Of a stretch of DNA of 47,518 bases, positions 2,520 to 39,640 are shown piece after piece; within the stretch, counting starts at the first letter, position 1, and every line of letters begins with the position of its first letter. The position numbers and the translations under genes are program-made. Under the pieces are notes generated by a model that had not been told where the DNA came from, searched no databases, and worked only from the letters and a program-made list of their open reading frames with translations. The stretch is from Gemmatimonadota bacterium (GTDB lineage: Bacteria > Latescibacterota > UBA2968 > UBA8231): contig JAYPJE010000001.1 of the NCBI GenBank assembly GCA_038128265.1, positions 1-47,518 of the forward strand. Reading direction: 5' to 3'.

Positions 2520-5500
2520 GTGAAAATCGGGTTATACATAGTCCTGCTGGGTGCTGCCTGCAGTATCGTTCGAGCCGATGTCGGTCTCGAAGATCGGCTG
2601 AGCGACTCTGTGCACCAGCTTTCTAGCTATGCTTCGCGCCTGACCGGCTATCCGGGCTCCGATGCAGCGGCCCATTGGATTGAGGGCACGCTGCGCGAAA
2701 TGGGCGTCAAAGAAATTCATCGCCATGCGTTTCCGCTGCTGGTGCCGATGGACGAGGGGTTTTCGCTGGAGATCGAAGGGCAATCCCTGCCACTTTATGG
2801 CGTATGGCCCAATCTAATTCGCACATCTACCTTGCCCGAGGAGGGCATTGAGGGCGCGCTTCTTTACGGTGGCGATGGCCGTCTCCTCGAGGGCAAGCCG
2901 GTAGCCGATCGCATTGTGCTGCTCGAATACGATGCGCAAGATCTGTGGGTGGAGGCCTTCCAACTGGGTGCACAGGCGGTAGTTTTTCTGCCCGTCGACG
3001 GGGCGCATCGCGTGGAAGCCGGACAAAAATTCCTCGATGTTCCCGCCGATTTACCGCGTTTTTTCGCACCGCAGGCCACAGCGGATGTGCTGCGCGCGGG
3101 CGCCGCGCGTGCATCGCGAGTGCGCCTGAGCGGTCGCATGCCCATGCGCGAAGTGACGGGCCACAACCTCGTCGCTATCGTCGAGGGCAGCGATCCCAAG
3201 CTGCGCAGCGAAGCGGTCTATGTAACGGCGTATTACGACGCGATGTCGCCGGTGCCCGGGCTGGCGCCAGGCGCAGAGCAGGCCAGCAGCGCGGCTGCGC
3301 TGCTCGAACTGGCGCGCCAATGGACGCAGCGCCGGCCGCGCCGCACCGTCGTGCTCGTGTGGACGGCGGGGCACTTCCAGCATCTCGCCGGTATGCGCTA
3401 TCTGACGCCGGTGGTCATGGCGGCTGCGGGCCGTCGTCCGCTCGATGCGCTCAATGCCGATGAAGTCGCGCTGGCGGAGCGCTTGGGGGCATTCTCGCTG
3501 CGTTTTGCAGCCGGATTGGATCTGTCGTCTGGCAGCGCCATGATGGGTGCATTCCGTCCGAATGCACCCTACCGAACGTCCCTATTGGCCCCGCCCATTA
3601 CCGCGCGTCTGATGGATCGCGTAGCGGCTTATGAAGATTCGCTTGTAGCGGGACGGCGCATCTTTGCCAATGGACTCAAACAGGACTTTGCGCGCCAAGG
3701 CATAGGCTCTATGGCAGAGGTCGTGCCGATGGACGCCTCGGTGCTGGCGCTGGCCGGCTGTCCAACGGTCGCCTTTGCAACGATCAACGACAGCCGCGCT
3801 CGCTTTGACGCTGTCGATGACGTCGCCGAACGCGTGCAGACTGCGTGGCTGAGCGCGCAGGTCGCGCTCCTTAAATTTGTGCTGACGGAGCTGGTTGACG
3901 ACGGCGAGTTGGCCGCATGGGATTGGGGCAACGATGCGTTTGGAACCGTGCGCGGACAGGTGGTACACTACGGACCGCGCAGCTATTTGCCCGACGAGCC
4001 CACTGGCCACGCGCTGGTGCGCGTGCGCCTGCGCCATCCGACGCTGTCCGGCGTGCGGCCCGACCTATGGGCAGCGGCAGACGATTCGGGTTATTATCGC
4101 ATTCCCGGTATAGAGACGCGCATTATCTATACGCAGCCGGTGCGCTTGGAGGCCTATGCGCTGGACGAGCGCGGCGCCGTTGTCGAAGCGCCCGATTGGG
4201 GCATAAACGGCGAGCGCAAGCTGCCCGGCCGCGCTCTCAAGGTGTTGATGGACGACCACGAGGAAGAGGTGCAGATCGTCACGGCCAACCTGCGCGGCAC
4301 GACGCTCTTTGGTCTGTTCGATCCGCGCAACCTGCTGATGCCGGAGAACCTCGGAGCGATCGACGCGAGCCTCGAAGCGGAGCCCATGTCGTACGGGGCC
4401 TGCCTGCCGCTGACGGCACCGGAGATGGAGCTATTTGGCTATAGAAACTACGTCGGCTCACTGACGGAGTCGGTCGCGGTGCTCTTTACCCGGCCCGGCA
4501 CGCGCTTTAAAGTGGCCATGTCGACCGGTCGCTACGGACTGGGTCGTCGCCTATTGTTGCTCAATAGCAGCGACGAAGAGCCGCTGGGTGCGGGTTTTGC
4601 CGTGCAGGACGAAGGTCGGCTGCCCAATACGGTTTATCAGACGGCGCGCGATATGTTTTTGCTCAACGGCGCGCGCATCGACAACCTGCAGCGACACGGC
4701 GTGCGCAACGGACGACTGGCCGAGTTTCACGCGCGTGCTCAGGCCTACCTAGAGCAGGCCGATGCGGCGCGCGCGCGCTGGGCCCATCGCCTGTCGATCG
4801 ATGCGGCGCGGCGCGCCTGGGCCTATGCAGCGGCGGCCTACCGCGACGTTGAAAGCACGCAGGCCGGCGTGGTCCAAGGGGCGCTGTTCTTACTGGCCGT
4901 CCTGCTGCCCTTCGCCCATTTTGCCGAGCGTCTGGTATTTGGCTTTCCCGACGTGCGCCGGCAGGTTCTGGGCTATTTTGCGCTCTTCTTTATTGGCTTT
5001 CTCGCTCTGAGCCAGCTGCATCCGGCTTTTGAGCTGTCGATCTCTCCCTTTGTCATCCTGCTCGGCTTTGTCATTCTGGCGCTGGGGCTGCTGGTGACCG
5101 GCATCGGTATTTCCCGTCTCAATAGGGAACTGCAAGAGCTGGCGCGCGGCCGGCGCGGCCACGCTTCCATGCAGCGCGGCGGGGCAGTTATGGCTTCGAT
5201 ATCCGTGGGGCTGGCCCATATGCGGCGGCGACCGCTGCGCACGGGGATGACCTGCGCCACGTTGGTCTTGCTGACGTTTTCCGTGCTTTCGTTTACGTCG
5301 ATTCGCTCGGCGCTGCGCACCAATTGGATCGACGTGGGCAGCGGAGCGCACTACGACGGTGCGCTGCTGCGCACGCTGGGTTGGAAGGCGATGGAAATGG
5401 AAGCCTATCGCATGCTGGTAGACCGATTTGGTGTCGACAGCGTCGCGCCGCGCGCCTGGAAATCGGTTTCTTCGGCGGCGGCGACGTTTCGCGTTGAACG

Positions 5501-6911
5501 GGCCGATATCGAGGGGCGTGCGACCGGGGTCATGGGCTTTGCCGGCCTGAGTGAAGTCGAAGCGCGCCTCGTGCGTCCGCAGGAGGGCCTGGTCGCCGGT
5601 CGCTGGCTGCGCGCAGGGGAAGACGATGTGTGTCTGCTGCCGCTGGGCGTCGCCGATTCGCTGGGCATCGGCGTGGCCGATGTGGGGGGCGCGCGCGTGC
5701 GTCTGTTTGGCGAGGTGTTTCGCGTAGTGGGCATTTTGGACCACGCGGCGCTAGAGCGGGCCGATCTGAACGGCGAGGGGCTGACGCCGCTCGATCCGGA
5801 AGCGCAGCAGCCCACCGAAGCCGCCTCGACGCAGCAGGGAGGGATGCCTCAGCACTACGCCCATATGCCGGGCGCGTCGACGCTCGTCCTACCCTTTTCA
5901 GCCCTGATGCGCTGGCAGGGGGCCCACCTTGTATCGCTGGGCGTGCACATGCCGTCAGAGCATGCCCGCGCGGAGCTGGAGACGCTTTCCGAAGTCGTCG
6001 ATTTAAACCTATTCGCCGGTCTTGGGGGACGCCGCTATTTGATTAATACGGTGGGCGTGGCCTCTGTTTCGGGGCTGGGCCAGCTGGCCGTGCCGCTGGG
6101 CATTGCCGCGCTGATCGTGCTCAATACGATGCTCGGCGCCGTCTACGAGCGCACGCGCGAAATAGGCACGCTCAATGCCATCGGACTGGCGCCGGTGCAC
6201 GTGAGCGGACTCTTTATCGCCGAGGCGGTGGCGCTGGCCGTCATCGGAGCGGTGATGGGCTATTTACTGGGGCAGACGGCGGCGCAGGTGATGGGCAGCT
6301 TGGGCTGGCTGCAGGGGTTGGAGCTGAACTACTCTTCGCTGTCGGCGGTGGTCACCGTAGGGTTGGTCATTGCGCTCGTGGTTGCGTCGGCGCTCTATCC
6401 GGCGCATATGGCCGGCAAGATCTGCACGCCGGGTATCGAGCGGCGCTGGAAGCCGCCTGTGCCCGATGGCCACGATCTGCGCATGCGCCTGCCCTTCACG
6501 CTGGCCCGGGTCGAGGCCGAAGGCATGGCTGCGTTTCAAACCGAGTTTTGGGCGGCCCATCGCGAACAGTCTATTGGCGCGGGATTTTACGTCGAAGCCC
6601 TGCGCGTTGGCCGCCAAGAGGACGGTCTGCGCCTCGATGCGCGCGTCTGGCTCGCGCCGTTTGACCAAGGCGTGGTGCAGGATACGGCGCTGTTTATCCG
6701 CCCCGGCGAAAATCCACTTTACTGCGATATCGACGTGCACTTGCACCTAGTTACCGGCGATTGGGACACCTGGCAGCGCGTGGCGCGCACGTTTTTAGAC
6801 GATTTGCGCAAGCAGTTCCTCGTATGGCGCACGCTGTCCGACGCCGATCGCCGCGCCTACGCCAGCGCGCTTTCGCGCTGGGAACATGCAGACGACGAGG
6901 TGCAGGTATGA
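2520..6911 (+). CDS. Large membrane protein: N-terminal M28-peptidase-like (probably inactive) ectodomain fused to a MacB/FtsX-like ABC permease region
   Basis: Signal peptide; M28-like 'SRLTGYPGS..AA..I', 'NLVAIVEG', 'TAYYDAMS..PGAEQASSAAALLELAR', 'GLDLSSG'; TM block; FtsX signature 'NTMLGAVYERTREIGTLNAIGLAP.HV..LFIAEA'. Confidence 0.8.
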   Translation: MKIGLYIVLLGAACSIVRADVGLEDRLSDSVHQLSSYASRLTGYPGSDAAAHWIEGTLREMGVKEIHRHAFPLLVPMDEGFSLEIEGQSLPLYGVWPNLIRTSTLPEEGIEGALLYGGDGRLLEGKPVADRIVLLEYDAQDLWVEAFQLGAQAVVFLPVDGAHRVEAGQKFLDVPADLPRFFAPQATADVLRAGAARASRVRLSGRMPMREVTGHNLVAIVEGSDPKLRSEAVYVTAYYDAMSPVPGLAPGAEQASSAAALLELARQWTQRRPRRTVVLVWTAGHFQHLAGMRYLTPVVMAAAGRRPLDALNADEVALAERLGAFSLRFAAGLDLSSGSAMMGAFRPNAPYRTSLLAPPITARLMDRVAAYEDSLVAGRRIFANGLKQDFARQGIGSMAEVVPMDASVLALAGCPTVAFATINDSRARFDAVDDVAERVQTAWLSAQVALLKFVLTELVDDGELAAWDWGNDAFGTVRGQVVHYGPRSYLPDEPTGHALVRVRLRHPTLSGVRPDLWAAADDSGYYRIPGIETRIIYTQPVRLEAYALDERGAVVEAPDWGINGERKLPGRALKVLMDDHEEEVQIVTANLRGTTLFGLFDPRNLLMPENLGAIDASLEAEPMSYGACLPLTAPEMELFGYRNYVGSLTESVAVLFTRPGTRFKVAMSTGRYGLGRRLLLLNSSDEEPLGAGFAVQDEGRLPNTVYQTARDMFLLNGARIDNLQRHGVRNGRLAEFHARAQAYLEQADAARARWAHRLSIDAARRAWAYAAAAYRDVESTQAGVVQGALFLLAVLLPFAHFAERLVFGFPDVRRQVLGYFALFFIGFLALSQLHPAFELSISPFVILLGFVILALGLLVTGIGISRLNRELQELARGRRGHASMQRGGAVMASISVGLAHMRRRPLRTGMTCATLVLLTFSVLSFTSIRSALRTNWIDVGSGAHYDGALLRTLGWKAMEMEAYRMLVDRFGVDSVAPRAWKSVSSAAATFRVERADIEGRATGVMGFAGLSEVEARLVRPQEGLVAGRWLRAGEDDVCLLPLGVADSLGIGVADVGGARVRLFGEVFRVVGILDHAALERADLNGEGLTPLDPEAQQPTEAASTQQGGMPQHYAHMPGASTLVLPFSALMRWQGAHLVSLGVHMPSEHARAELETLSEVVDLNLFAGLGGRRYLINTVGVASVSGLGQLAVPLGIAALIVLNTMLGAVYERTREIGTLNAIGLAPVHVSGLFIAEAVALAVIGAVMGYLLGQTAAQVMGSLGWLQGLELNYSSLSAVVTVGLVIALVVASALYPAHMAGKICTPGIERRWKPPVPDGHDLRMRLPFTLARVEAEGMAAFQTEFWAAHREQSIGAGFYVEALRVGRQEDGLRLDARVWLAPFDQGVVQDTALFIRPGENPLYCDIDVHLHLVTGDWDTWQRVARTFLDDLRKQFLVWRTLSDADRRAYASALSRWEHADDEVQV

Positions 6912-27612: not shown

Positions 27613-28875
27613 ATGGCCTATTCGCAGTTCGATCGAGTGCCCAATCACTACGCTGGTCCCATCATTCAGCAAATCAAGGACTTCCGCCAGGAAAAAGGTA
27701 GGCGCTCGCTCGCTCCGACTGCGCTGCAGATCGGTCAGTTGGAACTGCTTATTCCGCGTCACTTCGGCTTTTGTTTTGGCGTAGAGCGCGCTATCCACAT
27801 GGCATTTTCTACCCTGGAAAAGCAGCCCCAAAAACGCACGTACCTCGTCAGCGAAATTATTCATAACCCGCTGGTAAACAGCGAATTGAAAGAGCGCGGC
27901 GTCGAGTTTGTCTACGACGCAGACGGACAGCGCCAGGTGGGTGAAGACGATCTCAGCGGCGACGACGTCGTGCTCATACCGGCCTTTGGTACCACGCTGC
28001 AGGTCGAGGATTCGCTGCGGGCCAGCGGCATCGATATTGACAGCGAAAGCTACCGCGAACACTACGACACCACGTGTCCGTTTGTATCTAAGGTATGGAA
28101 GCGCGGAGAGGAGCTGGGGCGCGAGGGCTACACGATTGTTATTCATGGAAAGTATCGCCACGAGGAGACGCAGGCGACGCACTCCCATACAAAGGAACAC
28201 GCTAAGACGCTGGTTGTGCTGGATTGTGAGGAAGCGGAAAAAGTGGCTTCCTTTATCGTGGGCGAAATGAGTGTGGAGGCCTTTCGCGCCGAGTTCGCCG
28301 GCAAGTGGTCAGAGGGTTTTGACCCCGAGCGCGATTTGGAGCGCGTTGCCGTCGTTAACCAGACGACGATGTTGGCGGCCGAAACGCAGCGCGTAGCGCA
28401 GATACTGTCGGCCGCTATGGAGCGGCGATACGGCAGCGATGATATCGAGTACCACTGTGCCGACACCAACGATACGCTGTGCTATGCGACCAACCAGAAC
28501 CAGAATGCCACGCACGCGCTGCTGCGGTCAGAAGCCGATCTGGCGCTGATTGTCGGAGGCTACAACAGCTCTAATACGTCGCACTTGGTGGAGATTTGTT
28601 CGCAGGTTATGCCGAGCTACCTCATCGCCAATAGCGACGAGCTGGTTTCTGCGCAGCAGATTCGCCACTTTGACATAGGTCGCAAGGAAATTGCGTGCGG
28701 CGAAGAATGGCTGCCCCAGCAGCGGCCGCTGCGCATGGTCATTACTTCCGGTGCATCGTGTCCGGACGTGCTCATGAACCAGGTGATTGAGCGCGTGGTA
28801 GAACTCTGTGGATATAGTCGCGAAGACATTGAGCGCGGCCTGAATGCACTGCGCCTGTTTGAGGAGGCCGCATGA
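27613..28875 (+). CDS. ispH: 4-hydroxy-3-methylbut-2-enyl diphosphate reductase (long form)
   Basis: Three Fe-S Cys motifs 'FGFCFGVERA', 'DTTCPFV', 'DTLCYAT..NQ'; 'EIIHNP', 'NQTTM', 'GGYNSSNT', 'TSGASCP'. Confidence 0.95.
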   Translation: MAYSQFDRVPNHYAGPIIQQIKDFRQEKGRRSLAPTALQIGQLELLIPRHFGFCFGVERAIHMAFSTLEKQPQKRTYLVSEIIHNPLVNSELKERGVEFVYDADGQRQVGEDDLSGDDVVLIPAFGTTLQVEDSLRASGIDIDSESYREHYDTTCPFVSKVWKRGEELGREGYTIVIHGKYRHEETQATHSHTKEHAKTLVVLDCEEAEKVASFIVGEMSVEAFRAEFAGKWSEGFDPERDLERVAVVNQTTMLAAETQRVAQILSAAMERRYGSDDIEYHCADTNDTLCYATNQNQNATHALLRSEADLALIVGGYNSSNTSHLVEICSQVMPSYLIANSDELVSAQQIRHFDIGRKEIACGEEWLPQQRPLRMVITSGASCPDVLMNQVIERVVELCGYSREDIERGLNALRLFEEAA

Positions 28876-29177
28876 TTGTTGCGCTGGTTAAGGGACATAT
28901 AGTGTCCTCTGCCAAAGTGGATAATTTAGAGGGCAAGAAGCTGCTGCTGGTTGAGATTCTCGCCGCCACGCCCGAGGGGCTTAAGCACACGGACCAACAC
29001 ATGGTGTGCATTGATTCGGTGCAGGCTGGCGAAGGAGAGCTGGTCGTCGTAGTGCAGGGCTCTTCGGCGCGCATCGCTCCAGGGATGAGCGACGTGCCGG
29101 TCGATGCGTTGGCGATAGGAATCGTCGATTCGCTGCAGGCGTTTGGTGGTCAGCTAGATCTGGAGGTCGGCTCGTGA
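28872..29177 (+). CDS. BMC vertex (pentamer) protein, EutN/CcmL family
   Basis: 'V.G.IVSS.K...L.GKKLLLV', 'CIDSVQAGEGELVVVVQGSSAR', 'PVDA...GIVD'; ATGA overlap with ispH stop. Confidence 0.93.
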   Translation: MIVALVKGHIVSSAKVDNLEGKKLLLVEILAATPEGLKHTDQHMVCIDSVQAGEGELVVVVQGSSARIAPGMSDVPVDALAIGIVDSLQAFGGQLDLEVGS

Positions 29178-29419
29178 AGCGCTGTCGCGTCATCGGGCAC
29201 GTCGTTGCCAACGCCAAGCACAGCGTGCTGGACGGGCAAAAGATCATGGTCGTCAAGCCCGAGCCCGATGGGCCCATGCAGCTGGCGTTAGACGGCGTTG
29301 GTGCGGGCATCGGTTCGCTGGTTATCGTCTCCGAATCGGGGACGGCTGGTGCTCAAGTGACCGGGTGGGAGCAACCGCCGGCGCGCAGCGTCATCGTTGG
29401 CATTATAGACGGAGCGTGA
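29174..29419 (+). CDS. BMC vertex protein, EutN/CcmL family
   Basis: 'RVIGHVVANAKH..LDGQKIMVV', 'ALDGVGAGIGSLV', 'PARSVIVGIID'; GTGA overlap. Confidence 0.88.
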   Translation: MKRCRVIGHVVANAKHSVLDGQKIMVVKPEPDGPMQLALDGVGAGIGSLVIVSESGTAGAQVTGWEQPPARSVIVGIIDGA

Positions 29420-29423
29420 TGAT

Positions 29424-29690
29424 ATGAAATTGGGAAAAGTCGTTGGCACGGTTGTCCTATCGCACTGCATCGATTCTTTTCGCGGTCGCCCTCTGCATCT
29501 AGTGATGAGCGTAGATGAAGAGCTGCAACCTGTCGGCGAAGCGGAGGTCTGCGCCACCTGGGAGGCGCGCAGCGAGGGGGAACTCGTCGTGTTCGAGGTC
29601 GCGCGCGAAGCGGCCAATATCGCCGATCCGGCCATTCCATCCGACGCGTCGATTATTGGCAAAGTGGAAAAGGTGCATATAGCGCGCTAG
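29424..29690 (+). CDS. BMC vertex protein, EutN/CcmL family (divergent)
   Basis: 'MKLGKVVGTVV', 'GELVVFEVAREA', 'PSDASIIGKVE'. Confidence 0.85.
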   Translation: MKLGKVVGTVVLSHCIDSFRGRPLHLVMSVDEELQPVGEAEVCATWEARSEGELVVFEVAREAANIADPAIPSDASIIGKVEKVHIAR

Positions 29691-29717
29691 GGTATATCCG
29701 CCAGTGTACAAATAGAT

Positions 29718-29754
29718 CGCCCGCGCTACTGCAGGAGCAGCGCGGGCGTTTTTT
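29718..29754 (+). terminator. Rho-independent terminator ending the ispH-vertex triplet transcript
   Basis: CGCCCGCGCTACT-gcagg-AGCAGCGCGGGCG followed by TTTTTT. Confidence 0.8.
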
Positions 29755-29772
29755 GTGCAATACAGCGGTGTT

Positions 29773-30573
29773 TTAGGGCCCCACTACGCCATTTTTGAGC
29801 TGGCCGATACCCTCTAATTCAACGATGACTTCATCGCCTGGTTTGAGCCAGACCGGCGGTTTGCGCGCGAAGCCGACGCCCTGCGGAGTGCCGGTGAGAA
29901 TGACGGTGCCCGGCAGCAGGGTAGTGTCCTGGCTCAGGAAGCTGATGATCTCGGCGACGGAGAAAATCATATCACCGGTGGTGTGGTCCTGCATGGTCTG
30001 GCCGTTGAGTATCGTTTTGATGCCCAAGTTCTGCGGGTCAGCAATTTCATCAGCCGTGACCAATACCGGTCCGAGGGGGCAGAACGTGTCGAAGCCTTTG
30101 CCGCGTATCCACTGACCGCCGCCGGCATTGAGCTGCCACTTGCGCGCCGATACGTCGTTGGCGCAGGTGTAGCCCAGCACGCAGTCCAGCGCATCTTCTA
30201 CGCGCACATCGCGCACCGGCTTCCCAATAACGGCGGCCAGTTCGCACTCGTAGTCGACCTCTTCATCCTGCTGACAGGCGGGCAGGCGTATGGGGTCGCC
30301 GGGGTGGCAGAGCGTGCTGGTCGGCTTGGCAAAGACAATGGGAAGCTTGGGCTCTTCCATGCCCGACTCGGCAGCGTGCTCCCGATAGTTGAGCCCTATA
30401 CAGTATATGTTGGTGGGTGCTACGGGAGCCAGCAGTTTGGCAATGGGAGCGGTTGATCCCGTCGGCGACAGGCCCGCGTAGAGAGTGCCCTCGAGCACCT
30501 CGGCTTCGCCCCCCTCGCGTTCCATGCCGTAGCGCTCGCGGTTTTCCCCGTCTAAGAAACGAATAATGCGCAT
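29773..30573 (-). CDS. Fumarylacetoacetate hydrolase (FAH) family protein
   Basis: 'IYCIGLNYREHA.E', 'VDYECELA', 'GYTCANDVSARKWQ', 'RGKGFDTFCPLGP', 'ILTGTPQGVG'; SD AGGAGG before ATG 30573. Confidence 0.93.
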   Translation of the reverse strand: MRIIRFLDGENRERYGMEREGGEAEVLEGTLYAGLSPTGSTAPIAKLLAPVAPTNIYCIGLNYREHAAESGMEEPKLPIVFAKPTSTLCHPGDPIRLPACQQDEEVDYECELAAVIGKPVRDVRVEDALDCVLGYTCANDVSARKWQLNAGGGQWIRGKGFDTFCPLGPVLVTADEIADPQNLGIKTILNGQTMQDHTTGDMIFSVAEIISFLSQDTTLLPGTVILTGTPQGVGFARKPPVWLKPGDEVIVELEGIGQLKNGVVGP

Positions 30574-30610
30574 ATGTCCTCCTCTTTTTTTTGCCGCGTT
30601 ACAGGCGATC

Positions 30611-30681
30611 AAGGTAGTCGTTGCACAGCATAAGTGTCAAGCCGAAGCCAACTTGACGGAGGAGATACCCCCGACTATTTT
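30611..30681. promoter_or_regulatory. Divergent sigma70-like promoters for the FAH gene (-) and the main BMC operon (+)
   Basis: + strand TTGACG (30653-58)-17 nt-TATTTT (30676-81); - strand TTGACA (30640-35)-18 nt-TACCTT. Confidence 0.5.
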
Positions 30682-30733
30682 TCTGGGGCTGTATACGCAC
30701 GTTGCGATCTATACATCCAGTGAGGTGAAAAGC

Positions 30734-32161
30734 GTGGCTCAGAACGCGAGCGAAGAGCAGATTCGCAAAATAGTCGAAGAGGTTGTAACCCGCATCGTCA
30801 CAAATGGCCATGGCGCGTCCCTGCCCGCTGCCGATCCCGGCGAGGGGGGCGTATTCCCCACCATAGATGCGGCTACTCAGGCTGCCACGCGGGCGCAGGA
30901 GCAGCTGGTTGCCATGACGTTGGAGCAGCGCCGGTCGATCGTAGAGGCCATTCGCCACGTGTCGCGCGAGCGCGCTGAAGATTTTTCCCGTCGCGCCCTG
31001 GAAGAGACGGGAATGGGGCGGCTGGAGGACAAGATTCAAAAGCACCGGGTTGCCGCCGATGCAACGCCTGGCATCGAAGACCTCGAAGCCAAGTCGTGGA
31101 CCGGCGATCACGGGCTGACCGTAGTCGAAATGGCGCCCTACGGCGTGATTGGGGCTATCACGCCTTCTACCCACCCGGTGCCGACGATGGTCAATAACGC
31201 CATCTGCATTATTGCCGCGGGCAACTCGGTGGTATTCAACGTGCACCCCGGCGCAAAAAACGTGTCGATGTATGCGGTGCGTCTGCTCAACGAAGCCATC
31301 GTGCAGGTTGGTGGGCCGGCTAATTTGATAACGGCGGTAGCAGAGCCAACGCTGGAGACGGCCAACGAATTGTTTACGCATCCCGGCATTCGCCTATTGT
31401 TGGTCACTGGTGGACCGGGCGTTGCGCAGGCCGCTATGGCCAGCCCCAAAAAAGCCATCGTTGCCGGTCCGGGCAATCCGCCCGTCGTCGTTGATGAGAC
31501 GGCAGACCTCAAGAAAGCAGCCAGAGACATTATCGACGGCGGCGCCTTTGATAACAATATCCTCTGCCTGGGCGAAAAACAGGTCTTTGTCGTCGATAGC
31601 GTCGCCGATGAGCTCAAACGCCACATGGTCGACTACAGCGCCTACGAGCTCAGCGCGCAGCAAATCGAAGAGCTGGCCGCCGTGGCTTTTGTGAAGGGGC
31701 CTGACGGTCATCCCTTGGCCAACCGCGAATTGGTCGGGCGCAGCGCATGGGTGCTGGCCGATCGCATCGGCGTTAAGCTGGGCGAGTCACTGCGTATGCT
31801 CATTGGCGAAACGCGCGCCGATCACGTCTTTGTCGAAGAGGAGCAGATGATGCCCTTTTTGCCAATCGTGCGGGTGCGCGACGTCGATGAGGGCATTCGC
31901 TTGGCGGTGATTTCTGAGCACGGCTACAAGCATACGGCCATTATTCACTCGCGCAACATCGAAAATATGCACAAGATGGCGTGTGCATCGGATACGACTA
32001 TTTTTGTAAAAAACGGGCCTTCTTTTGCCGGCGTCGGTTTAGGGGGCGAGGGCTTTGGAACCTACTCGATCGCCGGTCCGACCGGCGAGGGGCTCACCTC
32101 GCCACGGACGTTTACGCGCGCGCGGCGCTGTGCGTTGGTCGACTACTTCCGCATTACCTAA
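30734..32161 (+). CDS. CoA-acylating aldehyde dehydrogenase, EutE/PduP family, with N-terminal encapsulation peptide
   Basis: GTG start with SD GAGGTG; 'EETGMGR.EDK..K', 'TGDHGLT..E.APYGVIG..TPSTHP', 'AGPGNPP', catalytic 'FDNNILCLGEK', 'TGEGLTS..TFTR.RRC'; N-terminal 'EEQIRKIVEEVVTRIV'. Confidence 0.93.
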   Translation: MAQNASEEQIRKIVEEVVTRIVTNGHGASLPAADPGEGGVFPTIDAATQAATRAQEQLVAMTLEQRRSIVEAIRHVSRERAEDFSRRALEETGMGRLEDKIQKHRVAADATPGIEDLEAKSWTGDHGLTVVEMAPYGVIGAITPSTHPVPTMVNNAICIIAAGNSVVFNVHPGAKNVSMYAVRLLNEAIVQVGGPANLITAVAEPTLETANELFTHPGIRLLLVTGGPGVAQAAMASPKKAIVAGPGNPPVVVDETADLKKAARDIIDGGAFDNNILCLGEKQVFVVDSVADELKRHMVDYSAYELSAQQIEELAAVAFVKGPDGHPLANRELVGRSAWVLADRIGVKLGESLRMLIGETRADHVFVEEEQMMPFLPIVRVRDVDEGIRLAVISEHGYKHTAIIHSRNIENMHKMACASDTTIFVKNGPSFAGVGLGGEGFGTYSIAGPTGEGLTSPRTFTRARRCALVDYFRIT

Positions 32162-32173
32162 ATCGGTGGTGCG

Positions 32174-32473
32174 ATGATACTAGGACAGGTGCGCGGGCGC
32201 GTGGTGTCGACGGCCAAGGTGGGCAGCTTAAACGGCAAAAAGCTGCTGGTCGTCGAAGTGGTGTCCGTGCGCGAGCACGGGCTGGTGCGCACCGGTCGCG
32301 AAATGGTCTGCGTCGACGCGGTGCAGGCCGGCGAGGGCGAACTGGTCTTCGTGGTTCAAGGGTCGTCGTCGCGCATTGCACCCGACATGCGCGACGTCCC
32401 CACTGATGCGGTGATTGTCGGCATTGTCGACTCGCTGCAGTCGATGGGAAACGCAATGGAGCTGCGCGATTAA
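32174..32473 (+). CDS. BMC vertex protein, EutN/CcmL family
   Basis: 'QVRGRVVSTAK..SLNGKKLLVV', 'VDAVQAGEGELV.VVQGSSSR', 'PTDAVIVGIVD'; close paralog of 28872..29177. Confidence 0.93.
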   Translation: MILGQVRGRVVSTAKVGSLNGKKLLVVEVVSVREHGLVRTGREMVCVDAVQAGEGELVFVVQGSSSRIAPDMRDVPTDAVIVGIVDSLQSMGNAMELRD

Positions 32474-33169
32474 ATGGCGGCAGATGGATTACAGGGCTTG
32501 GACCGCGCAGCGATAGAACAGATTGTGCGCCGCGCCGTCTACGACTTTATGCCCGATGGCCAATTGGGACGAACGGCCGGTCCCGACGTGTCGCCGGTGC
32601 CGCGCCTAGTGGTCAATATCTCGGCGCGCCATATTCACCTCAACCGCGAAGCCATGGATATCCTCTTCGGGCCGGGCAGCGAGTTGACGGTGCAAAAGGC
32701 GCTCTACCAGGAGGGCGCCTTTGCCGCTGAAGAAACGCTATCGGTTTTTGGGCCGCGCAAGCAGGTGATTGCCAACGTGCGCGTCTTGGGGCCACTGCGC
32801 GCGTATAACCAGGTCGAGTTGGCCTTTACAGACGCGCGTTTCTTGGGCATTGATGCGCCCGTGCGGCTCAGCAGCCGCGTCGAAGGTTCGCCGGGGTGCT
32901 TCCTCGTCGGTCCACACGGCGGCCTCGAATTGCAGGAAGGCGTAATTCGCGCAGCGCGGCACGTGCATATGAGCCCGGCGGAAGCCGAGTACTATGGCGT
33001 GCAGGGAGGCGATCTCATGCGCTTAGTAGTGGAGAGCGAGCAGGGCGGTTCCTTGGAAGGGCTGATTTGCCGCGTCAGCGATCAGGAAAAGCTGGAGGTG
33101 CACTTGGATACGGACGAGGGCAATGCGCTCGATCTGGTGCACGCCCGCAAAGTATATTTGGAAAAGTAG
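32474..33169 (+). CDS. pduL: PduL-type phosphotransacylase with N-terminal encapsulation peptide
   Basis: 'VNISARHIHL', 'VRVLGPLR...QVELAFTDAR.LGI.APVRLS', 'IRAARHVHMSP', 'EVHLDTDEGNA'; N-terminal 'LDRAAIEQIVRRAVYDFM'. Confidence 0.93.
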   Translation: MAADGLQGLDRAAIEQIVRRAVYDFMPDGQLGRTAGPDVSPVPRLVVNISARHIHLNREAMDILFGPGSELTVQKALYQEGAFAAEETLSVFGPRKQVIANVRVLGPLRAYNQVELAFTDARFLGIDAPVRLSSRVEGSPGCFLVGPHGGLELQEGVIRAARHVHMSPAEAEYYGVQGGDLMRLVVESEQGGSLEGLICRVSDQEKLEVHLDTDEGNALDLVHARKVYLEK

Positions 33170-33200
33170 AGTAGACTTCGCACACACCAGGAGGAAAGCG

Positions 33201-33761
33201 ATGTCGGATGCAATCGGAATGGTAGAAACGGTCGGGCTGGTGGGCATCGTCGAGGCTGGCGATGCCATGGCCAAAGCGGCTAGCGTGCAGCTCTTGGGCT
33301 GGGACAAAGTTGGTTCGGGGCTGGTAACGGTGTTCTGTTCGGGCGACGTGGCGGCCGTAAAGTCGGCCGTCGATGCCGGATCGACGGCGGCGGCCAAAGT
33401 GGGTAAGGTGCATTCGGTGCACGTGATCCCGCGTCCGCACGAAGAGTTAGGCGCCATTATGCCGCAGCGCGGCGAGGCGGGCGCATCGGATGGCGTGCGC
33501 GCGCTGGGGCTCATTGAGACGCGCGGTGCCACCGGTGTGATTGAGGCGGCCGATGCAATGAGCAAGGCGGCCGATGTGGATATTGTCAGAGTGCAGGAAA
33601 TCGGTGGGGGGTACATCACCGTGCTAGTCAGCGGCGACGTAGGCTCGGTGCAGGCGTCCGTTAGCGCCGGAGCCGAGGCCTGTGAGCGCGTTGGCGAATT
33701 GGTTTCGCAACACGTGATCCCGCGCCCACACGACGATGTGGTCGCCCTCTACTTGAGCTGA
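33201..33761 (+). CDS. BMC shell protein with two tandem non-permuted BMC domains
   Basis: SD AGGAGG; 'AIGMVET.G...AGDAMAKAA...GSG...[10 protein letters not shown]...HVIPRPH' then 'ALGLIETRG...ADAMSKAA...HVIPRPH'. Confidence 0.93.
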
Positions 33762-33777
33762 TAGGAGATACGCTACT

Positions 33778-34041
33778 ATGAAAGCACTTGGTATGGTGGA
33801 GACGAAAGGGCTGGTGTGCGTGGTCGAGGCCCTAGATGCAATGCTCAAAACGGCGGATGTGAGCTTTGCCGGTCAGAAGCGCGTCGGCAGCGGCTTTGTC
33901 GCCGTGCTGGTCGAGGGCGATGTCGCAGCGGTTAAAGCCGCGGTCGATGCCGGTGCCAGCGCAGCGCAGCGCGTTGGCGAGTTGCGCAGCGTGCACGTGA
34001 TTCCGCGTCCGGTATCGGACTTGACGCAGCACCTGTCGTAG
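33778..34041 (+). CDS. BMC shell hexamer protein (BMC-H, PduA/EutM-like)
   Basis: 'ALGMVETKG...[10 protein letters not shown]...KRVGSG.V...[13 protein letters not shown]...HVIPRP'. Confidence 0.95.
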
Positions 34042-34053
34042 ACTGCGCGTCGA

Positions 34054-34548
34054 ATGGCTTCCGTCCTCTACATTGAAGAGGCCGTAGTTACGGGCGATGT
34101 GCTATCGCGTCGCCACGCTGACGAAGGGCAGGTGTGCGTTAGCGAAGGCGCGATTGTCACGCCGACGGCGTGGGACTATCTGCGCCAAAAGCGCCTGCAG
34201 CTCAGCAGGGGAAAGAGCCCTGAGCCCGCGGCCTCCGCTGTGCAAGCCCCCGCGCGGCTCATTGCCGAAGTGGAAGCGCCGCAGATGGACGGGACGGGAC
34301 GCTGTGACCAGCCCGGACGCTCGTGTGGCTGCCAGACGGAAGAATTTGGCTCGGGCTACGTCGAGCCTAGTTCGTGTCGCGACTGCGCTATTTACCAGAT
34401 GAAGAGTCGAGGGGAGAGCGGGGCCAGCTGCCACGGCTGCAACCGCCGCGTGCTGCTCGACCAGTTGATCGAGTCTGGACAGGGCGTCGACCCAGAGCAG
34501 CTGATTGGCGAAGTGACGGCCTTGGTCGTGCACCGCTTGGAGGATTGA
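34054..34548 (+). CDS. BMC-associated hypothetical protein, Cys-rich, with C-terminal amphipathic helix
   Basis: In operon. N-terminal module 'VVTGDVL...AIVTPTAWDYLR'; Cys cluster C-x6-CGC...CxxC...CxxC; C-terminal 'DPEQLIGEVTALVVHRLED'. Confidence 0.75.
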   Translation: MASVLYIEEAVVTGDVLSRRHADEGQVCVSEGAIVTPTAWDYLRQKRLQLSRGKSPEPAASAVQAPARLIAEVEAPQMDGTGRCDQPGRSCGCQTEEFGSGYVEPSSCRDCAIYQMKSRGESGASCHGCNRRVLLDQLIESGQGVDPEQLIGEVTALVVHRLED

Positions 34549-34549
34549 G

Positions 34550-35131
34550 ATGCCCGCCGCCATCGGCCTGATAGAAGTTGAGGGAGTGGCCGGCATTATC
34601 GTGGCCGCCGACGCTGCGCTCAAAGCGGCCGACGTCGAGCTGCTCGGCTGGGAGTCGATCGGCGGATTTACTACCGTGCTGTTTAGCGGTTCAATCAGCG
34701 ATGTGGGAGCGGGCTTGGACAGCGGTCGTGCCGCGGCTGCGCACATCGTAGAGCACGTGGTTGCCGCGCCCGTTACACAGCCGCAGGAAGCCTGCCTGCG
34801 CTTTGCGAGTTTTCCCGTTCAAAAAGAGGCGGCCGTGCGCGAAGGGGCGTTGGGCCTCGTTGAGACGCGCGGCTACGCGGCCCACGTGTATGCCGACGAC
34901 GATATGGTCAAGGCCGCCGATGTAGAAGTGGTCAACGTGCTGACGGTGCACAATCGAGTGGTATGCTCTCTGGTGCAGGGCGACGTCGGCGCCGTGCGCG
35001 AAGCCATCGCGCGGGCCGAGGCTCGCCTGCGCGAGTACCCACATTTGCTTAGCACGTTTGTTTTGCCACAGCCGCGCCGGGAGGTGTTGCAGACCTTTGC
35101 CGTGCCGCTGCGAGGAGGGGGCAGTGTCTAA
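34550..35131 (+). CDS. BMC shell protein with two tandem BMC domains (divergent)
   Basis: 'AIGLIEVEG...AADAALKAADV', second 'ALGLVETRG...DDMVKAADV...GDVGAVREAI...VLPQP'. Confidence 0.9.
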   Translation: MPAAIGLIEVEGVAGIIVAADAALKAADVELLGWESIGGFTTVLFSGSISDVGAGLDSGRAAAAHIVEHVVAAPVTQPQEACLRFASFPVQKEAAVREGALGLVETRGYAAHVYADDDMVKAADVEVVNVLTVHNRVVCSLVQGDVGAVREAIARAEARLREYPHLLSTFVLPQPRREVLQTFAVPLRGGGSV

Positions 35132-36275
35132 GGCAATAGGCGTGCTTGAGACGCGCGGTATGGCTTCCCTGCTAAACGCGACCGACGCGATGTTAAAAGT
35201 GTCCGAAGTGCGCGTCGCTGGTCGCCACGGCATTGGTTCGGGTTGGGTAACGGTCGTAATTGAGGGCAGCGTCGCCGATGTGCATGCCGCCATGGCCGTT
35301 GGTCGGGTTGAGGCCCAGCGCTACGGAGAGCTCATTGGCGCCGAGGTGATTCCGCGTCCTGAAACCCGCGCTCAGAATGCGATGCCGCACGGTGCAGCCG
35401 TCGACGGAGCCCTGGCGACTGACGGACGGGCATTGGGCGTTGTGGAAACGCAGGGCCTATCGCCGCTGATCGCGGCTGCGGATGCCATGGTTAAAGCAGC
35501 CGCCGTCGATTTGTGCGGCTGGGCCTTTATCGGCGGCGCGCTGTGCCACGCTGTCGTACGCGGTGATGTGGCCGCCGTGCAAACAGCCGTTGAGGTTGGC
35601 CGTCGCGCGGCAGAAGGTGTGGGTGTTACCTATGCGACACTCGTTCTGCCGCAGCCCGTAGCCGGTATTGCACCGCTGTTGCCGGTCTCGTCCAGCGGCG
35701 ATGTGGGAGCGGGCGGTGCACTTGGCGTGGTAGAAACAATAGGATACGCGACGGTAGTGGCGGTAGGCGATGCCATGGTTAAGGCCGCCGATGTTCAGGT
35801 GCAGCGATTGAGCATTGGCAGCGGAGGACGCATTGCCGCCCTCGCAGTGGGGAGTCTAGACGACGTGCAGGCCGCTGTGGCTGCAGGTCAGCAAGAAGCC
35901 AAGGCCGTGGGGGAACTGGACGGCAGCACGCTGGTCTCGCGGCCGGACGGGGCGACCATGGCCTGCTTTGCCGGTCCGGTAGAAGGACCGCGCCGTGCCG
36001 GTGCGCGCCGTGCGCTCGGACTAATAGAGACGCGCAGCACCGTTGCTTTGGTGCGCGCCGTAGACCAAATGTTAAAAGCGGCCGACGTCGAGTACGAAGG
36101 TAGTTTTAAGGTGGGTTACTTTTTGACCGCCAGCGCGGTGCGCGGCGATGTCGGAGCTGTTAGAGTGGCCATTGATGCCGGCGCACAGGAAGCGGCAAAG
36201 CACGGCGAGCTCGTCTCGGCGCACGTCATTCCGCAGCTCTACGGCGACGTTGAGCTGTGCCTGCCGCATCAATGA
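35124..36275 (+). CDS. BMC shell protein with four tandem BMC domains
   Basis: GTG start after SD GAGGAGG; four repeats beginning AIGVLETRG / ALGVVETQG / ALGVVETIG / ALGLIETRS, each with a D-[AQ]-M-x-K motif and ending IPRP / LPQP / VSRP / IPQL. Confidence 0.9.
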   Translation: MSKAIGVLETRGMASLLNATDAMLKVSEVRVAGRHGIGSGWVTVVIEGSVADVHAAMAVGRVEAQRYGELIGAEVIPRPETRAQNAMPHGAAVDGALATDGRALGVVETQGLSPLIAAADAMVKAAAVDLCGWAFIGGALCHAVVRGDVAAVQTAVEVGRRAAEGVGVTYATLVLPQPVAGIAPLLPVSSSGDVGAGGALGVVETIGYATVVAVGDAMVKAADVQVQRLSIGSGGRIAALAVGSLDDVQAAVAAGQQEAKAVGELDGSTLVSRPDGATMACFAGPVEGPRRAGARRALGLIETRSTVALVRAVDQMLKAADVEYEGSFKVGYFLTASAVRGDVGAVRVAIDAGAQEAAKHGELVSAHVIPQLYGDVELCLPHQ

Positions 36276-36327
36276 TAACTAAAGGCATGGCGGCATTGGG
36301 CGCCGTGCGCAATTGAGGATAGCGATT

Positions 36328-37500
36328 ATGGTTCGCATAGACGATTCGGTGATTACGGCACAGGTCTTGCGGGATCGATTGGGCGACGAGCGCGAAGTCG
36401 AGATCTGCCCAAGGGCCAAACTAACGCCGTCAGCGCTCGACTTTTTGCGCGAGCGTGGCATTGAGGTTGCCCACCGCGAAGCCCATGCTACGGACGGTGC
36501 GGCCGCAGCTGTGTCGGCCTCTTCCGCTTCGTCTTCTTCTCAGCGCCGCGAGTTCAAGGGCATCTTCTGTCCCAATATCGTCATCTTCGACAGCGCGGGG
36601 CGCATCAACTACAGCGAGATGGAACGCTATGTGAACTGGCTGATCGACGCGGGGATTCACGGGCTCTACCCCAATGGCAGCACGGGCGAGTTTGTGCGCC
36701 TGTCGTGGGAAGAGCGCCAAGACGTGGTGCGTCTAATTGCCGATGTTAACGGCGGACGCGTCCCCATTCTGGCAGGAGCGAGCGAAGCCAATACGCGCGA
36801 CGTGCTGAAAATGGCTGAGTTCTACGCCTCGATTGATGTAGACGCCATTTCGCTGGTGCCGCCCTTTTACTACAAGATCTCCGACGAGAGCCTCTTTGAG
36901 TATTTTGCCGAGATCGCCGAGGAATCACCCCTCGATATTTTGCTCTACAACATACCGCAGTTTACGCAGGAACTGCCGTTGGAGCTGATGGAGCGCCTGT
37001 TGCCCTACGAGCGCATTTTTGGCACGAAGGATTCCAGCCGCGACCTGCCCCGCTTGATTAACACCATGCATCGCCTGCGCGCTCAGCGCCCCGACTACGT
37101 CGTGCTGGTCGGCTGCGAGGAGATTCTGTTTCCATCGGTTATGATGGGAGCTAGTGGTGGCACGATTGCGACATCGGGTATTGTGCCAGAGGTAATCGTT
37201 GAACTCTACCAACAGGCCCTGGCCAATAACGTTGACCGCGCTCGTACGCTACAGTACCGCATTCTCGATTTGATCAACCTCATGCTGCTCGGCGTCAACT
37301 TTCCCGAAGGGTTTAAAACCGGGGTAGCCGTGCGCGGTTTTGACGTGGGGCCTGCGCGTGCGTCGACGAGTCCGGCCGAGCAGGAGTACCTGCTGAAACT
37401 CGAGGCGCAGATTGGCTGCGTGCTGAGCGATATGGGATATTCGGTGCGCGGCGCGCGCGCCTGCCCCGTTACCAATCTGCCGCCTATCGTAGGCCGTTGA
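36328..37500 (+). CDS. DHDPS/NAL-family class I aldolase/lyase with an N-terminal BMC-associated extension
   Basis: 'GLYPNGSTGEF..LS.EER', 'LVPPFYY', 'LLYNIPQ', Schiff-base Lys 'GTKDSS'; about 70-aa N-terminal extension with Ala/Ser linker. Confidence 0.88.
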   Translation: MVRIDDSVITAQVLRDRLGDEREVEICPRAKLTPSALDFLRERGIEVAHREAHATDGAAAAVSASSASSSSQRREFKGIFCPNIVIFDSAGRINYSEMERYVNWLIDAGIHGLYPNGSTGEFVRLSWEERQDVVRLIADVNGGRVPILAGASEANTRDVLKMAEFYASIDVDAISLVPPFYYKISDESLFEYFAEIAEESPLDILLYNIPQFTQELPLELMERLLPYERIFGTKDSSRDLPRLINTMHRLRAQRPDYVVLVGCEEILFPSVMMGASGGTIATSGIVPEVIVELYQQALANNVDRARTLQYRILDLINLMLLGVNFPEGFKTGVAVRGFDVGPARASTSPAEQEYLLKLEAQIGCVLSDMGYSVRGARACPVTNLPPIVGR

Positions 37501-38588
37501 GCAAACCCTCGGGCGCACAGGTCCTCGTTGTTGGCGCTGGTATAATCGGCCGTTCGATTGCCTACTATCTCTCTCGCGCCGGCGCGCACCCCACACTGAT
37601 CGAAGCGAGCGCAGGTCCTTCCGAAGCCAGTCGTGCATCGCTTGGCGTTCTCACCCACTTTAGCGGCGGTGCCAGCACGTATGCGCTATTCATACGCGAT
37701 AGCCATGCGGCACACGAGCCACTGGCTGGTGAACTAGCCGACGAAACGGGCATTGATGTGGGATGGCGTCCGCTCGGTGGGATTGATCTCGTCATCGACG
37801 ATGAAGACGAAGAGCGGGTCGAGGGGCTCTGGAACGAAGGTCGCGCGCGCGGCGTGGTGCTCGAGCGCTTGGATGCAGATAGCGTGCACAAGATGGAGCC
37901 CGTCGTTTCGGGCGCCGTGCGCTGGGGCCTGTTGTTTCCCGAAGATCAGCGCGTTGCTCCCATGCTGCTGGGACAGGCGTTGCTCGAAGGTGCTGTATCG
38001 CGCGGTGCTCATGTGCACTACGACGAGCGTTTGCTACATATTGAAGCGTGCGCGGACGGCGGCATCGTTGCACAGACGTCGCGCGCAAGGCGCCACGCCG
38101 ATTTTGTCGTGCTGGCTGCCGGGGCTTGGACGGCGCGTCTGGCCGAATCGATTGGTGCCAGCGTTCCCGTACGTCCGGTGCGCGGACAGCACGGCTGCTT
38201 TGCCGGCCCCGCGCTGCGCCACGTGCTGCGCCAGGGTGGGCATCAGCTCCTCTCGGGTGCACGCGGAACGCTGGTCGGGGCCACTGCCGAAGAGGTCGGC
38301 TTTGTCAATGAAACGACGCAGGAGGCCGCGCGCGCGCTGGGGTCGGTGCACGCGCAGCTGCTAAAGGGGCCTTCGGTTCTGCGCTCACAGGGAGCCGGTC
38401 TGCGCGCCAAACCCAAGGCCGGCCGGCCAATGATCGGTCCGCTTTCCGACCATCCGCGCGTTTTTATTGCGACCGGTCACTATAAAAACGGCGTCCTAAT
38501 GGGGCCGCTGACGGGACAGGTCGTTACGCGCTGGTTGCTCACAGGAGATCCGGGGCGCGATATGGAGCCCTTTGTGCCCGAGCGCTAA
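37497..38588 (+). CDS. FAD-dependent oxidoreductase, DAO/glycine oxidase (ThiO/DadA-like) family
   Basis: 'VLVVGAGIIG', 'AS.ASLG', 'VVLAAGAW', 'PVRPVRGQ', 'GLR...GRPMIG', 'ATGHYKNGVLMGP.TG'; start overlaps the upstream stop. Confidence 0.85.
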   Translation: MSKPSGAQVLVVGAGIIGRSIAYYLSRAGAHPTLIEASAGPSEASRASLGVLTHFSGGASTYALFIRDSHAAHEPLAGELADETGIDVGWRPLGGIDLVIDDEDEERVEGLWNEGRARGVVLERLDADSVHKMEPVVSGAVRWGLLFPEDQRVAPMLLGQALLEGAVSRGAHVHYDERLLHIEACADGGIVAQTSRARRHADFVVLAAGAWTARLAESIGASVPVRPVRGQHGCFAGPALRHVLRQGGHQLLSGARGTLVGATAEEVGFVNETTQEAARALGSVHAQLLKGPSVLRSQGAGLRAKPKAGRPMIGPLSDHPRVFIATGHYKNGVLMGPLTGQVVTRWLLTGDPGRDMEPFVPER

Positions 38589-38698: not shown

Positions 38699-39640
38699 AT
38701 GACTATTGCGACAGACGAGTTAATTGATTCGCTGAATTCCGTTACTTCGATTCCCGTCGTGCCCTTTCGCGGCGGTAAGATCGACTACGATGCCCATGCC
38801 AAGAATATCCGTTACCTGATGGATAACAATCACTTGGATGGAGATCGCCGGCGCGTAATCGGCATAGCAGGCACGAGTTTGATTCACCATATCGGGCGCG
38901 ATGAGCAGGTGCGCCTGATCGATTTTACCGGCCAACAAATGGGTGGGCGCGGCGTGCTTATGTCCGGTATTGCGCCCAATCCCATTGCCGACGCCGAAGA
39001 GCTGATTCGCCGCGAGGCCGCGCTGTCCGTACCACCCGACTGCTATTTGGTGATGCCGCTTACGGGCGTGGGCAATGCCGAGGGCATTTTCCAAAACCAC
39101 CTGGCTATGGCCGAGCGCCTGGGGCGCGAAACGGGCGCGCGCTTCCTCTACTATCTGCGCAATAAAGCCGAGCGCGAGACGGCCGTTCGCTTGCTAAACG
39201 AGTCGGAGCACTTTATCGGCCTCAAGATCGGCACCGATATCGACGACGTGAAGCCCATTGTCGAAGGGGTTAACGACGGGGCCGGTATTGTTATATGGGG
39301 TGTGGGAGATCGCTCTACCGGGCCCGCTAGCCATGGGACAATCGGTCATACTTCCGGTATTAACGTGGTCTTTGTTCGCGCTTCGGACGCGATCAACAAC
39401 GCCCAGCGCAGCGGCGATATGCAGGCTTCGCAGCGCGTTGAAGACGAAATTGCCGCCTTCGAGGAAATTCGCTTTCGCGACAGTCGCGTGTACAATTACT
39501 CTGCTGTGGTAGAGGCGATGCACATAGTCGGTAGCGATGCGATTGATGGCGGCGATGGCGGCCCGTTCAATCCCCGGGTGCCGTCCGAGGTTGCGCGCGA
39601 AGTGGCGGCCGCTATCGAGCCTCTGATGCAGTACCACTAG
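38699..39640 (+). CDS. Divergent DHDPS-family TIM-barrel protein (loosely 5-dehydro-4-deoxyglucarate dehydratase-like)
   Basis: SD AGGAGG; 'SIPVVPF..GKIDYDAH', 'LYYLR', 'FIGLKIG'; canonical GxxGE replaced by 'AGTS'. Confidence 0.6.
   Translation: MTIATDELIDSLNSVTSIPVVPFRGGKIDYDAHAKNIRYLMDNNHLDGDRRRVIGIAGTSLIHHIGRDEQVRLIDFTGQQMGGRGVLMSGIAPNPIADAEELIRREAALSVPPDCYLVMPLTGVGNAEGIFQNHLAMAERLGRETGARFLYYLRNKAERETAVRLLNESEHFIGLKIGTDIDDVKPIVEGVNDGAGIVIWGVGDRSTGPASHGTIGHTSGINVVFVRASDAINNAQRSGDMQASQRVEDEIAAFEEIRFRDSRVYNYSAVVEAMHIVGSDAIDGGDGGPFNPRVPSEVAREVAAAIEPLMQYH

Follow-up and report, generated by a model that had tools for sequence, protein, structure and literature searches.

A four-domain microcompartment shell protein and its overlapping two-domain partner in Latescibacterota: a candidate six-domain tile

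We describe a pair of overlapping genes for bacterial microcompartment (BMC) shell proteins, one with four tandem BMC domains (here 4d) and one with two (2d), whose products most likely associate one to one as a 2+4 hetero-pseudohexamer. From sequence comparison and models of the single chains we put the probability of this assembly at about 0.6. The pair occupies positions 34,550 to 36,275 of a 47,518-nucleotide stretch of DNA (the window; GenBank assembly GCA_038128265.1, contig JAYPJE010000001.1, positions 1 to 47,518 of the forward strand) from a bacterium deposited as Gemmatimonadota and placed in the Latescibacterota by GTDB. Shell tiles are normally hexamers of one-domain or trimers of two-domain proteins, and four does not divide six. 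A reading made from the DNA letters (the original prediction) had therefore offered two solutions: a 1:1 complex of the neighbouring gene products with six domains, or three four-domain chains forming a twelve-domain stacked or bridging tile.

RESULTS

Two overlapping genes encode six colinear BMC domains

To place the domains, the whole genome was scanned in six frames with PF00936 (gathering cut-off, 24.5 bits). Four stretches lie in 4d (35133-35360, 35430-35657, 35718-35945, and 36012-36236), a protein that matches the profile with an E of 4.6e-75 and 248 bits, and two lie in 2d (34559-34765 and 34847-35074), which matches with an E of 1.5e-37 and 127.8 bits; this is the domain count that had been proposed as a check. 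The Pfam matches of all six follow the profile in order (positions 1-72 to 1-75), with no circular permutation, and the predicted secondary structure of 4d repeats the order E-H-E-E-H-E four times. The claim of four tandem, nonpermuted BMC domains in 35124-36275 is thus confirmed. Proteins of the BMC-T s type carry exactly two PF00936 domains per chain, a feature shared by 2d alone and absent from 4d. The six domains of the pair are 27 to 46% identical to one another. An origin of the pair by triplication of a BMC-T ancestor was considered and rejected, as the identity matrix lacks the odd/even pattern expected in that case.

The longest frame of 4d starts at TTG 35058; its length of 383 amino acids (aa) is counted from GTG 35124. 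This GTG lies inside ...AGT GTC TAA, the end of 2d (stop at 35129-35131), so that the two genes, as predicted, overlap, sharing 8 nucleotides (nt) with 34550-35131. A GGAGG sequence is found about 8 to 14 nt upstream of the GTG. We read the overlapping start and stop behind this GGAGG as a putative signature of translational coupling.

The pair is a conserved family and not an assembly artifact. 4d has 710 matches in a large protein collection, the best 120 of which are 56 to 92% identical to it, with lengths of 369 to 404 aa in 117 of these 120; the 120 listed homologues of 2d are 55 to 94% identical and 181 to 212 aa long. Where depositors gave a label, it is that of a Gemmatimonadota or Latescibacterota metagenome-assembled genome (MAG). 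Contigs of three independent DNA runs cover parts of both genes at at least 99% identity, without insertion or deletion in 34550-36275; this cover is partial, and none of the contigs bridges the junction by 31 letters on each side. The family is narrow in sequence space, because only 19 of 1.84 billion representatives (50% identity) match 4d at an E of ≤1e-30, and a single full four-domain protein is present among the best 150 representatives.

A few variants appear split. At one locus (L026, 2666-4428), 2d is followed by a three-domain open reading frame (ORF), and domain 4 comes behind the linker between the third and fourth domains, shifted to the +1 frame (2+3+1). Three database proteins (P0066, P0070, and P0089) cover only the second to fourth domains, several such ORFs starting in the linker between the first and second, and P0244 is also listed among the apparently split four-domain variants. 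These could be real fissions, frameshifts, or errors of gene calling, and we do not count them as evidence.

2d accompanies 4d and keeps its place upstream of it

We surveyed 168 species genomes of the phylum (thresholds, E ≤ 1e-40 for 4d and E ≤ 1e-30 for 2d). 4d is present in 83 of them and 2d in 84, and every genome with 4d also has 2d (83/83). The additional 2d match, in G096, covers residues 3-158 only and lies on a small contig of a genome that is 85% complete and in 980 contigs. By family, 4d is found in 64 of 75 genomes of f1, 16 of 22 of f3, 2 of 31 of f4, and none of the 39 genomes in the remaining eleven families. Each of the 49 loci retrieved from the surveyed genomes has 2d immediately before 4d, with both genes on the same strand. 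The same holds for nine loci of a contig collection, partly from the same genomes as the 49, and for the window, giving 59 of 59. The constant co-occurrence of the two genes, which the original prediction had named as a check, is borne out. In two genomes of a sister family (G054 and G056), the pair represents the only multidomain BMC genes, contributing six of the eight BMC domains in each.

Across the 59 loci, the two genes never share one frame without a stop. The 2d stop lies 1 to 27 nt before the first codon of the first 4d domain in 58 of them, the exception being L138, with 190 nt. If the residues between the last domain of 2d and the first of 4d are counted as a noncovalent "virtual linker," its length is about 18 to 24 residues across loci, next to 20 to 23 residues for the covalent linkers (three in 4d and one in 2d). 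This length stays constant because a longer gap goes with a shorter C-terminal tail of 2d.

These data bear on the possibility that a tile takes four of its positions from 4d and the other two from two single-domain BMC-H subunits or other paralogues, with 2d forming a tile of its own. BMC-H genes are indeed present in every genome examined, and mixed hexamers of paralogues have been reported for CcmK3/CcmK4 (PMC6788708). However, in the f3 genomes BMC-H is not adjacent to the pair, whereas 2d always is; the virtual linker is conserved in length, and the apparent translational coupling would indicate 2d as the stoichiometric partner. We consider this arrangement quite unlikely.

In a tree (quick IQ-TREE run with SH-aLRT support) of 142 domains, taken from 19 genomes in three families, each of the six domain positions has a clade of its own, with a support of 100 for both domains of 2d and for the fourth domain (D4) of 4d, 99 for D3, 89 for D1, and 87 for D2. 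Two rows of the tree that are mislabeled as another tandem gene group with the 2d clades. The domains of the conventional tandem-domain BMC protein and of the conventional BMC-H cluster apart from all six. Since each position has a separate clade, the 2+4 arrangement is older than the divergence of these families. The branches of both 2d domains are very long, and the pore loops of these domains are atypical.

The six edges are alike and the six pore loops are individual

The D-x-x-x-K motif at the tile edge provides a lysine that takes part in tile-to-tile contacts, as is known for PduA and CcmK. In alignments of 70 homologues each of 4d and 2d, every domain retains both the D and the K in all 70 sequences, except for K318 in D4 of 4d (69 of 70), so that the reported retention of this motif in all six domains extends to the family. 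The pore loops are near-invariant within each domain and different between domains. The six loops listed in the original prediction (SIGGF, VHNRV, IGSGW, IGGAL, IGSGG, and VGYFL) read the same in our sequence. Conserved loop residues are W34/S36/G38-G39 (D1) and T132/H134/R136/C139 (D2) in 2d, and H35/W41 (D1), W133/L140/H142 (D2), G234-G235-R236 (D3), and K329/Y332/L334 (D4) in 4d.

The pore loop of ordinary hexamers is Gly-Ser-Gly. Tentatively, the pore-side His134, Arg136, and Cys139 of 2d and His35, Trp41, Trp133, His142, Arg236, Lys329, and Tyr332 of 4d would be bulkier and more reactive than this motif, and such conserved bulky residues might suggest a closed or ligand-binding center rather than an open channel. 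The earlier idea of a tailored pore fits the conservation of the loops, as far as sequence can tell.

The edge motif also weighs on whether 4d is part of a closed tile at all. It could instead form an open arc that caps the edges of sheets, serve as a scaffold, or represent a nonshell use of BMC domains; its incorporation into a shell is a prediction from sequence, the organisms are uncultured, and the organelle has never been seen. Against this stand the D-x-x-x-K motif, kept in all four 4d domains in 69 to 70 of 70 homologues, the position of 4d within a complete metabolosome locus (four BMC-P genes, aldehyde dehydrogenase, and PduL), and a modeled fold and domain-pair geometry that match those of assembled shell tiles. 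A role outside a tile is therefore, in our view, very improbable.

Models place consecutive domains at neighboring tile positions

AlphaFold2 (AF2) monomer models were built on the homologue alignments of 4d and 2d. They reach a predicted local distance difference test (pLDDT) score of 90.1 and a predicted template modeling (pTM) score of 0.89 for 4d, and 93.6 and 0.91, respectively, for 2d. Single domains of both models are colinear with BMC-H structures (Z 16-18; root mean square deviation [rmsd], 0.8 to 1.3 Å). D3-D4 of 4d (residues 197-383) superposes on 6NER_b, a chain of an engineered BMC-H tandem fusion, with a Z of 27.2 and an rmsd of 1.3 Å over 178 residues, and residues 1-187 of 2d do so with a Z of 24.9 and an rmsd of 2.0 Å over 176 residues; the N-to-C order agrees in both cases. 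On the basis of this superposition, two consecutive domains of each protein are modeled as neighboring tile positions that follow one another in the same rotational sense. Should the remaining two junctions of 4d have this geometry as well, as its pTM and linker lengths lead us to infer, the chain would span four of the six positions and leave a gap of exactly two. Among 55 sequence matches in the PDB, no solved chain is longer than 213 aa, and therefore none has more than two BMC domains.

The main rival to the 1:1 tile takes 2d as an ordinary BMC-T-type homotrimer and three copies of 4d as a twelve-domain assembly, in which the D2-D3 linker joins two stacked or neighboring pseudohexamers. 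In its favor, 2d resembles trimer-forming shell proteins in having two domains, the tandem chain on which it superposes forms trimers, twelve is a multiple of six, and stacked double tiles are described for permuted tandem proteins (BMC-T dp; PMC8217296). The D2-D3 linker (20 aa), however, is neither longer nor more disordered than the others: the three linkers of 4d are modeled with similar, moderate confidence (pLDDT blocks of 86/73 for D2-D3 versus 76/58 and 68/78). In addition, a whole-chain pTM of 0.89 speaks against two independent halves, the 2d domains have very long branches and atypical pore loops, and such trimers would have no need of strict co-occurrence, a fixed gene order, or an overlapping start and stop. 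We regard this rival as unlikely.

A probable 1:1 tile of six domains

We favor a 1:1 complex of 2d and 4d. In the proposed scheme, the two proteins would be made in equal amounts from their overlapping genes by coupled translation. One copy of each would then close a single ring of six BMC domains, with a mass of about 60 kDa as estimated from their lengths, and, within the facets of the metabolosome shell, this ring would substitute for an ordinary hexamer or a trimer of tandem-domain proteins. All six edges would keep the lysine motif and thus be competent for tile-to-tile contacts. The center would be without symmetry, the six individually conserved loops with their Trp, His, Arg, Tyr, Lys, and Cys residues forming a bespoke pore or binding site. 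The domain count, the conservation, the strict co-occurrence and adjacency of the genes, and the tile-like geometry of the monomer models are established by the present data; the ring itself, its insertion into the shell, and any function of its pore are inferred.

Several points weigh against this proposal. Taken by itself, 2d is built like an ordinary tandem-domain protein that forms trimers, and the coinheritance of neighboring shell genes is expected in any operon and is no proof of contact. The comparison with solved structures covers 2d and D3-D4 of 4d, leaving the geometry of D1-D2-D3 to the pTM, and AF2 may have copied hexamer geometry from a paralogous signal. Moreover, a six-domain single-chain fusion was not found among the best 120 near-length homologues of 4d, and no protein with more than four domains, and hence no Rosetta-stone fusion, is present among the best 150 of the 1.84 billion representatives. 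Long frames upstream of 4d (up to 791 aa), considered as candidate fusions, are open by chance, with 2d in a different frame or cut off from 4d by a stop.

A search of the representatives also retrieved natural BMC proteins with three domains (14 representatives, P0251-P0334, 283 to 330 aa), with depositor labels that include Elusimicrobiota and Dehalococcoidia MAGs. At one unrelated metagenome locus (L145), two adjacent genes (13-885 and 889-1830) encode three PF00936 domains each. These six domains all differ (25 to 49% identity), and none is clearly orthologous to a domain of 2d or 4d. Such a 3+3 pair, seen at this single locus, is what a putative rule of six domains per tile predicts. Given 2+4 here and 3+3 in L145, six-domain gene pairs therefore arose at least twice. 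In the first gene of L145, we also observed K-x-x-x-D in domain 2 and D-x-x-x-D in domain 3 instead of D-x-x-x-K.

Taken together, co-occurrence, gene order, domain conservation, monomer geometry, and the 3+3 pair favor the six-domain half of the original prediction, while its twelve-domain option is disfavored by indirect arguments.

The pair within its metabolosome locus

The pair is part of a complete metabolosome locus on the + strand (28.9-39.6 kb of the window), flanked by housekeeping genes (Table 1). Four PF03319 vertex genes are found with an acylating aldehyde dehydrogenase and PduL within 28872-33169; the arrangement of the first three as a BMC-P triplet is known from several locus types in the catalogue text of PMC8217296. 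The whole genome contains ten BMC domains by the PF00936 scan, nine of them in this locus and one on another contig. The tenth belongs to a 163-aa satellite BMC-H outside the main locus (G000 contig C8, L003:1489-1980), which is extended at the C terminus, combining a linker rich in Pro, Ala, and Thr with a charged tail, and adjoins a small ribosomal-protein-like ORF.

Table 1. Genes of the metabolosome locus, with positions in the window
Feature	Positions	Strand	Evidence
BMC-P triplet	28872-29129, 29183-29410, 29424-29666	+	PF03319
FAA-hydrolase-family gene	29773-30612	-	PF01557
Acylating aldehyde dehydrogenase	30566-32161	+	PF00171; NF011927 at 656 bits
Fourth BMC-P (vertex gene)	32174-32473	+	PF03319
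PduL-type phosphotransacylase	32474-33169	+	PF06130
Conventional tandem-domain BMC protein	33123 (or later start)-33761	+	PF00936 x2
Conventional BMC-H	33778-34041	+	PF00936 x1
Cys-rich ORF, 164 aa, directly upstream of 2d	34054-34548	+	no Pfam/NCBIfam match
Two-domain BMC shell gene 2d, 193 aa	34550-35131	+	PF00936 x2
Junction of 2d and 4d: GGAGG-type ribosome-binding site, GTG start, TAA stop	35109-35131	+	sequence
Four-domain BMC shell gene 4d, 383 aa from GTG 35124	35124-36275	+	PF00936 x4
Dihydrodipicolinate synthase (DHDPS)-family enzyme (class I aldolase or lyase type), N-terminal extension of ~75 aa	36313-37500	+	PF00701
FAD-dependent oxidoreductase, DAO family	37497-38588	+	PF01266, E 2.8e-55
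Second, weaker DHDPS-like protein	38699-39640	+	PF00701, E 4e-06

The Cys-rich ORF has orthologues in 44 of the fetched loci. Six Cys residues are kept in at least 90% of 17 aligned orthologues, in the pattern C...GC...CxxC...CxxC, and a conserved, helix-like segment at the C terminus may represent an encapsulation helix. From its sequence, the protein is a possible metal or redox cargo, or a docking or redox partner. At its N terminus is a domain of about 50 aa that recurs in the extension of the DHDPS-type enzyme (34054-34210 and 36313-36470; 33% identity over 51 aa between the Cys-rich ORF and the N terminus of 36313-37500, E 2e-7). Structural look-alikes of this domain, all below threshold, are found at the N termini of typical cargo families (DHDPS, class II aldolase, RpiB, PduL, and adenosyltransferase), and the shared domain may serve for docking to the shell.

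In the DHDPS-type enzyme, PF00701 extends over residues 81-367; the best NCBIfam matches, N-acetylneuraminate lyase and DapA, are both below cutoff. The trio of 2d, 4d, and this enzyme is kept together where the rest of the locus lies elsewhere, as in L131 (G054, 3408-6332), and in the f3 genomes it is apart from the BMC-H and BMC-P genes. With little confidence, we suggest that the 2d/4d tile may serve the substrate or product of the enzyme. In the sister family (G054/G056), we observed that the satellite trio adjoins a PhyH-family gene, far from a locus with the BMC-P triplet and one BMC-H. A second BMC-H lies about 7 kb beyond that locus, and these genomes have no conventional tandem-domain shell gene.

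Near-identical DNA (at least half of the sampled words of window positions 33100-37500) was detected in nine metagenome runs from six studies, labeled estuary, seawater, marine, biofilm, and aquatic. In addition, an RNA-library run (X20) contains four short contigs about 92% alike, from a relative, at 33700-33784 (the 3' end of the conventional tandem gene), 34061-34367, 34470-34640, and 35009-35157; carry-over of DNA into this library is possible.

DISCUSSION

Comparison with known systems helps to define what is distinctive about the pair. The closest match by both structure and sequence (sequence E 2.5e-36) is 6NER, the synthetic BMC-H tandem fusion in the Haliangium ochraceum shell, which demonstrates that linked, nonpermuted BMC-H-like domains can occupy adjacent tile positions of an assembled shell. 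It differs in being engineered, with two identical domains and three chains per tile, whereas the natural pair has six diverged domains on two unequal chains. BMC-T s proteins such as PduT, as characterized in the catalogue text of PMC8217296, likewise have several nonpermuted PF00936 domains per chain, form hexagonal tiles of reduced symmetry, and belong to metabolosome loci, and PduT (3PAC) matches by sequence with an E of 4.9e-14. In these proteins, however, two domains per chain form a homotrimer with a three-fold symmetric pore, as opposed to 4+2 domains with six different loops and no expected symmetry; as a two-domain unit, PduT aligns poorly with the 4d model in Foldseek (TMt 0.45, rmsd 15).

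The CcmK3/CcmK4 hetero-hexamers of beta-carboxysomes reportedly resemble the proposed tile in combining more than one gene product in one tile, with a changed pore (PMC6788708). CcmK3 and CcmK4 are single-domain paralogues, and their order is not covalently fixed, whereas order and stoichiometry in a 2d/4d tile would be set by linkers and coupled translation. Similarly, the trio of the f3 genomes recalls the "EUT modules" of the catalogue text (PMC8217296), satellite cassettes of shell plus enzyme in which a cargo enzyme comes with its own tile, with the difference that the tile of known satellite cassettes is a single tandem-domain gene, unlike the 2d-4d pair.

The catalogue of Sutter et al. 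(2021) distinguishes, in its main account, six types of shell protein, none of them exceeding two domains per chain, and places Gemmatimonadetes and candidate-phyla loci among fragmented or unknown-function types (PMC8217296). The papers on Poribacteria microcompartment genes use single-domain markers only in their article text (PMC3909097, PMC5087111). Within the article text searched, none of these three sources mentions a shell protein with more than two domains. Full-text literature searches for multidomain shell proteins returned nothing relevant, as judged from titles and the beginnings of abstracts. Within this literature, a four-domain shell protein with an obligatory two-domain partner is undescribed.

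More speculatively, and with considerable doubt, the 2+4 pair and the 3+3 pair of L145 might belong to an undescribed class of building blocks, single-copy asymmetric tiles from two genes whose domains sum to six. The bespoke center of such a tile could bind a metal or cofactor, or dock the adjacent six-Cys protein; in this way, electrons or a cofactor could cross the shell.

Shell tiles determine entry to and exit from the microcompartment, and, to our knowledge, the tile types described so far are all homo-oligomers whose pores have six-fold or three-fold symmetry. A 2+4 tile, if confirmed, would explain how a four-domain protein fits into hexagonal geometry. As a natural tile with six different, fixed positions, it would mean that evolution can tune each pore-lining residue separately, and synthetic biology would gain a ready-made, fully addressable tile whose six unique sites could be used for pores, tags, or cofactors. 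The 4d family is common in one poorly studied phylum, being present in about half of the species genomes examined, and the organelle is probably ecologically relevant, since near-identical DNA recurs in estuarine and marine metagenomes of several studies.

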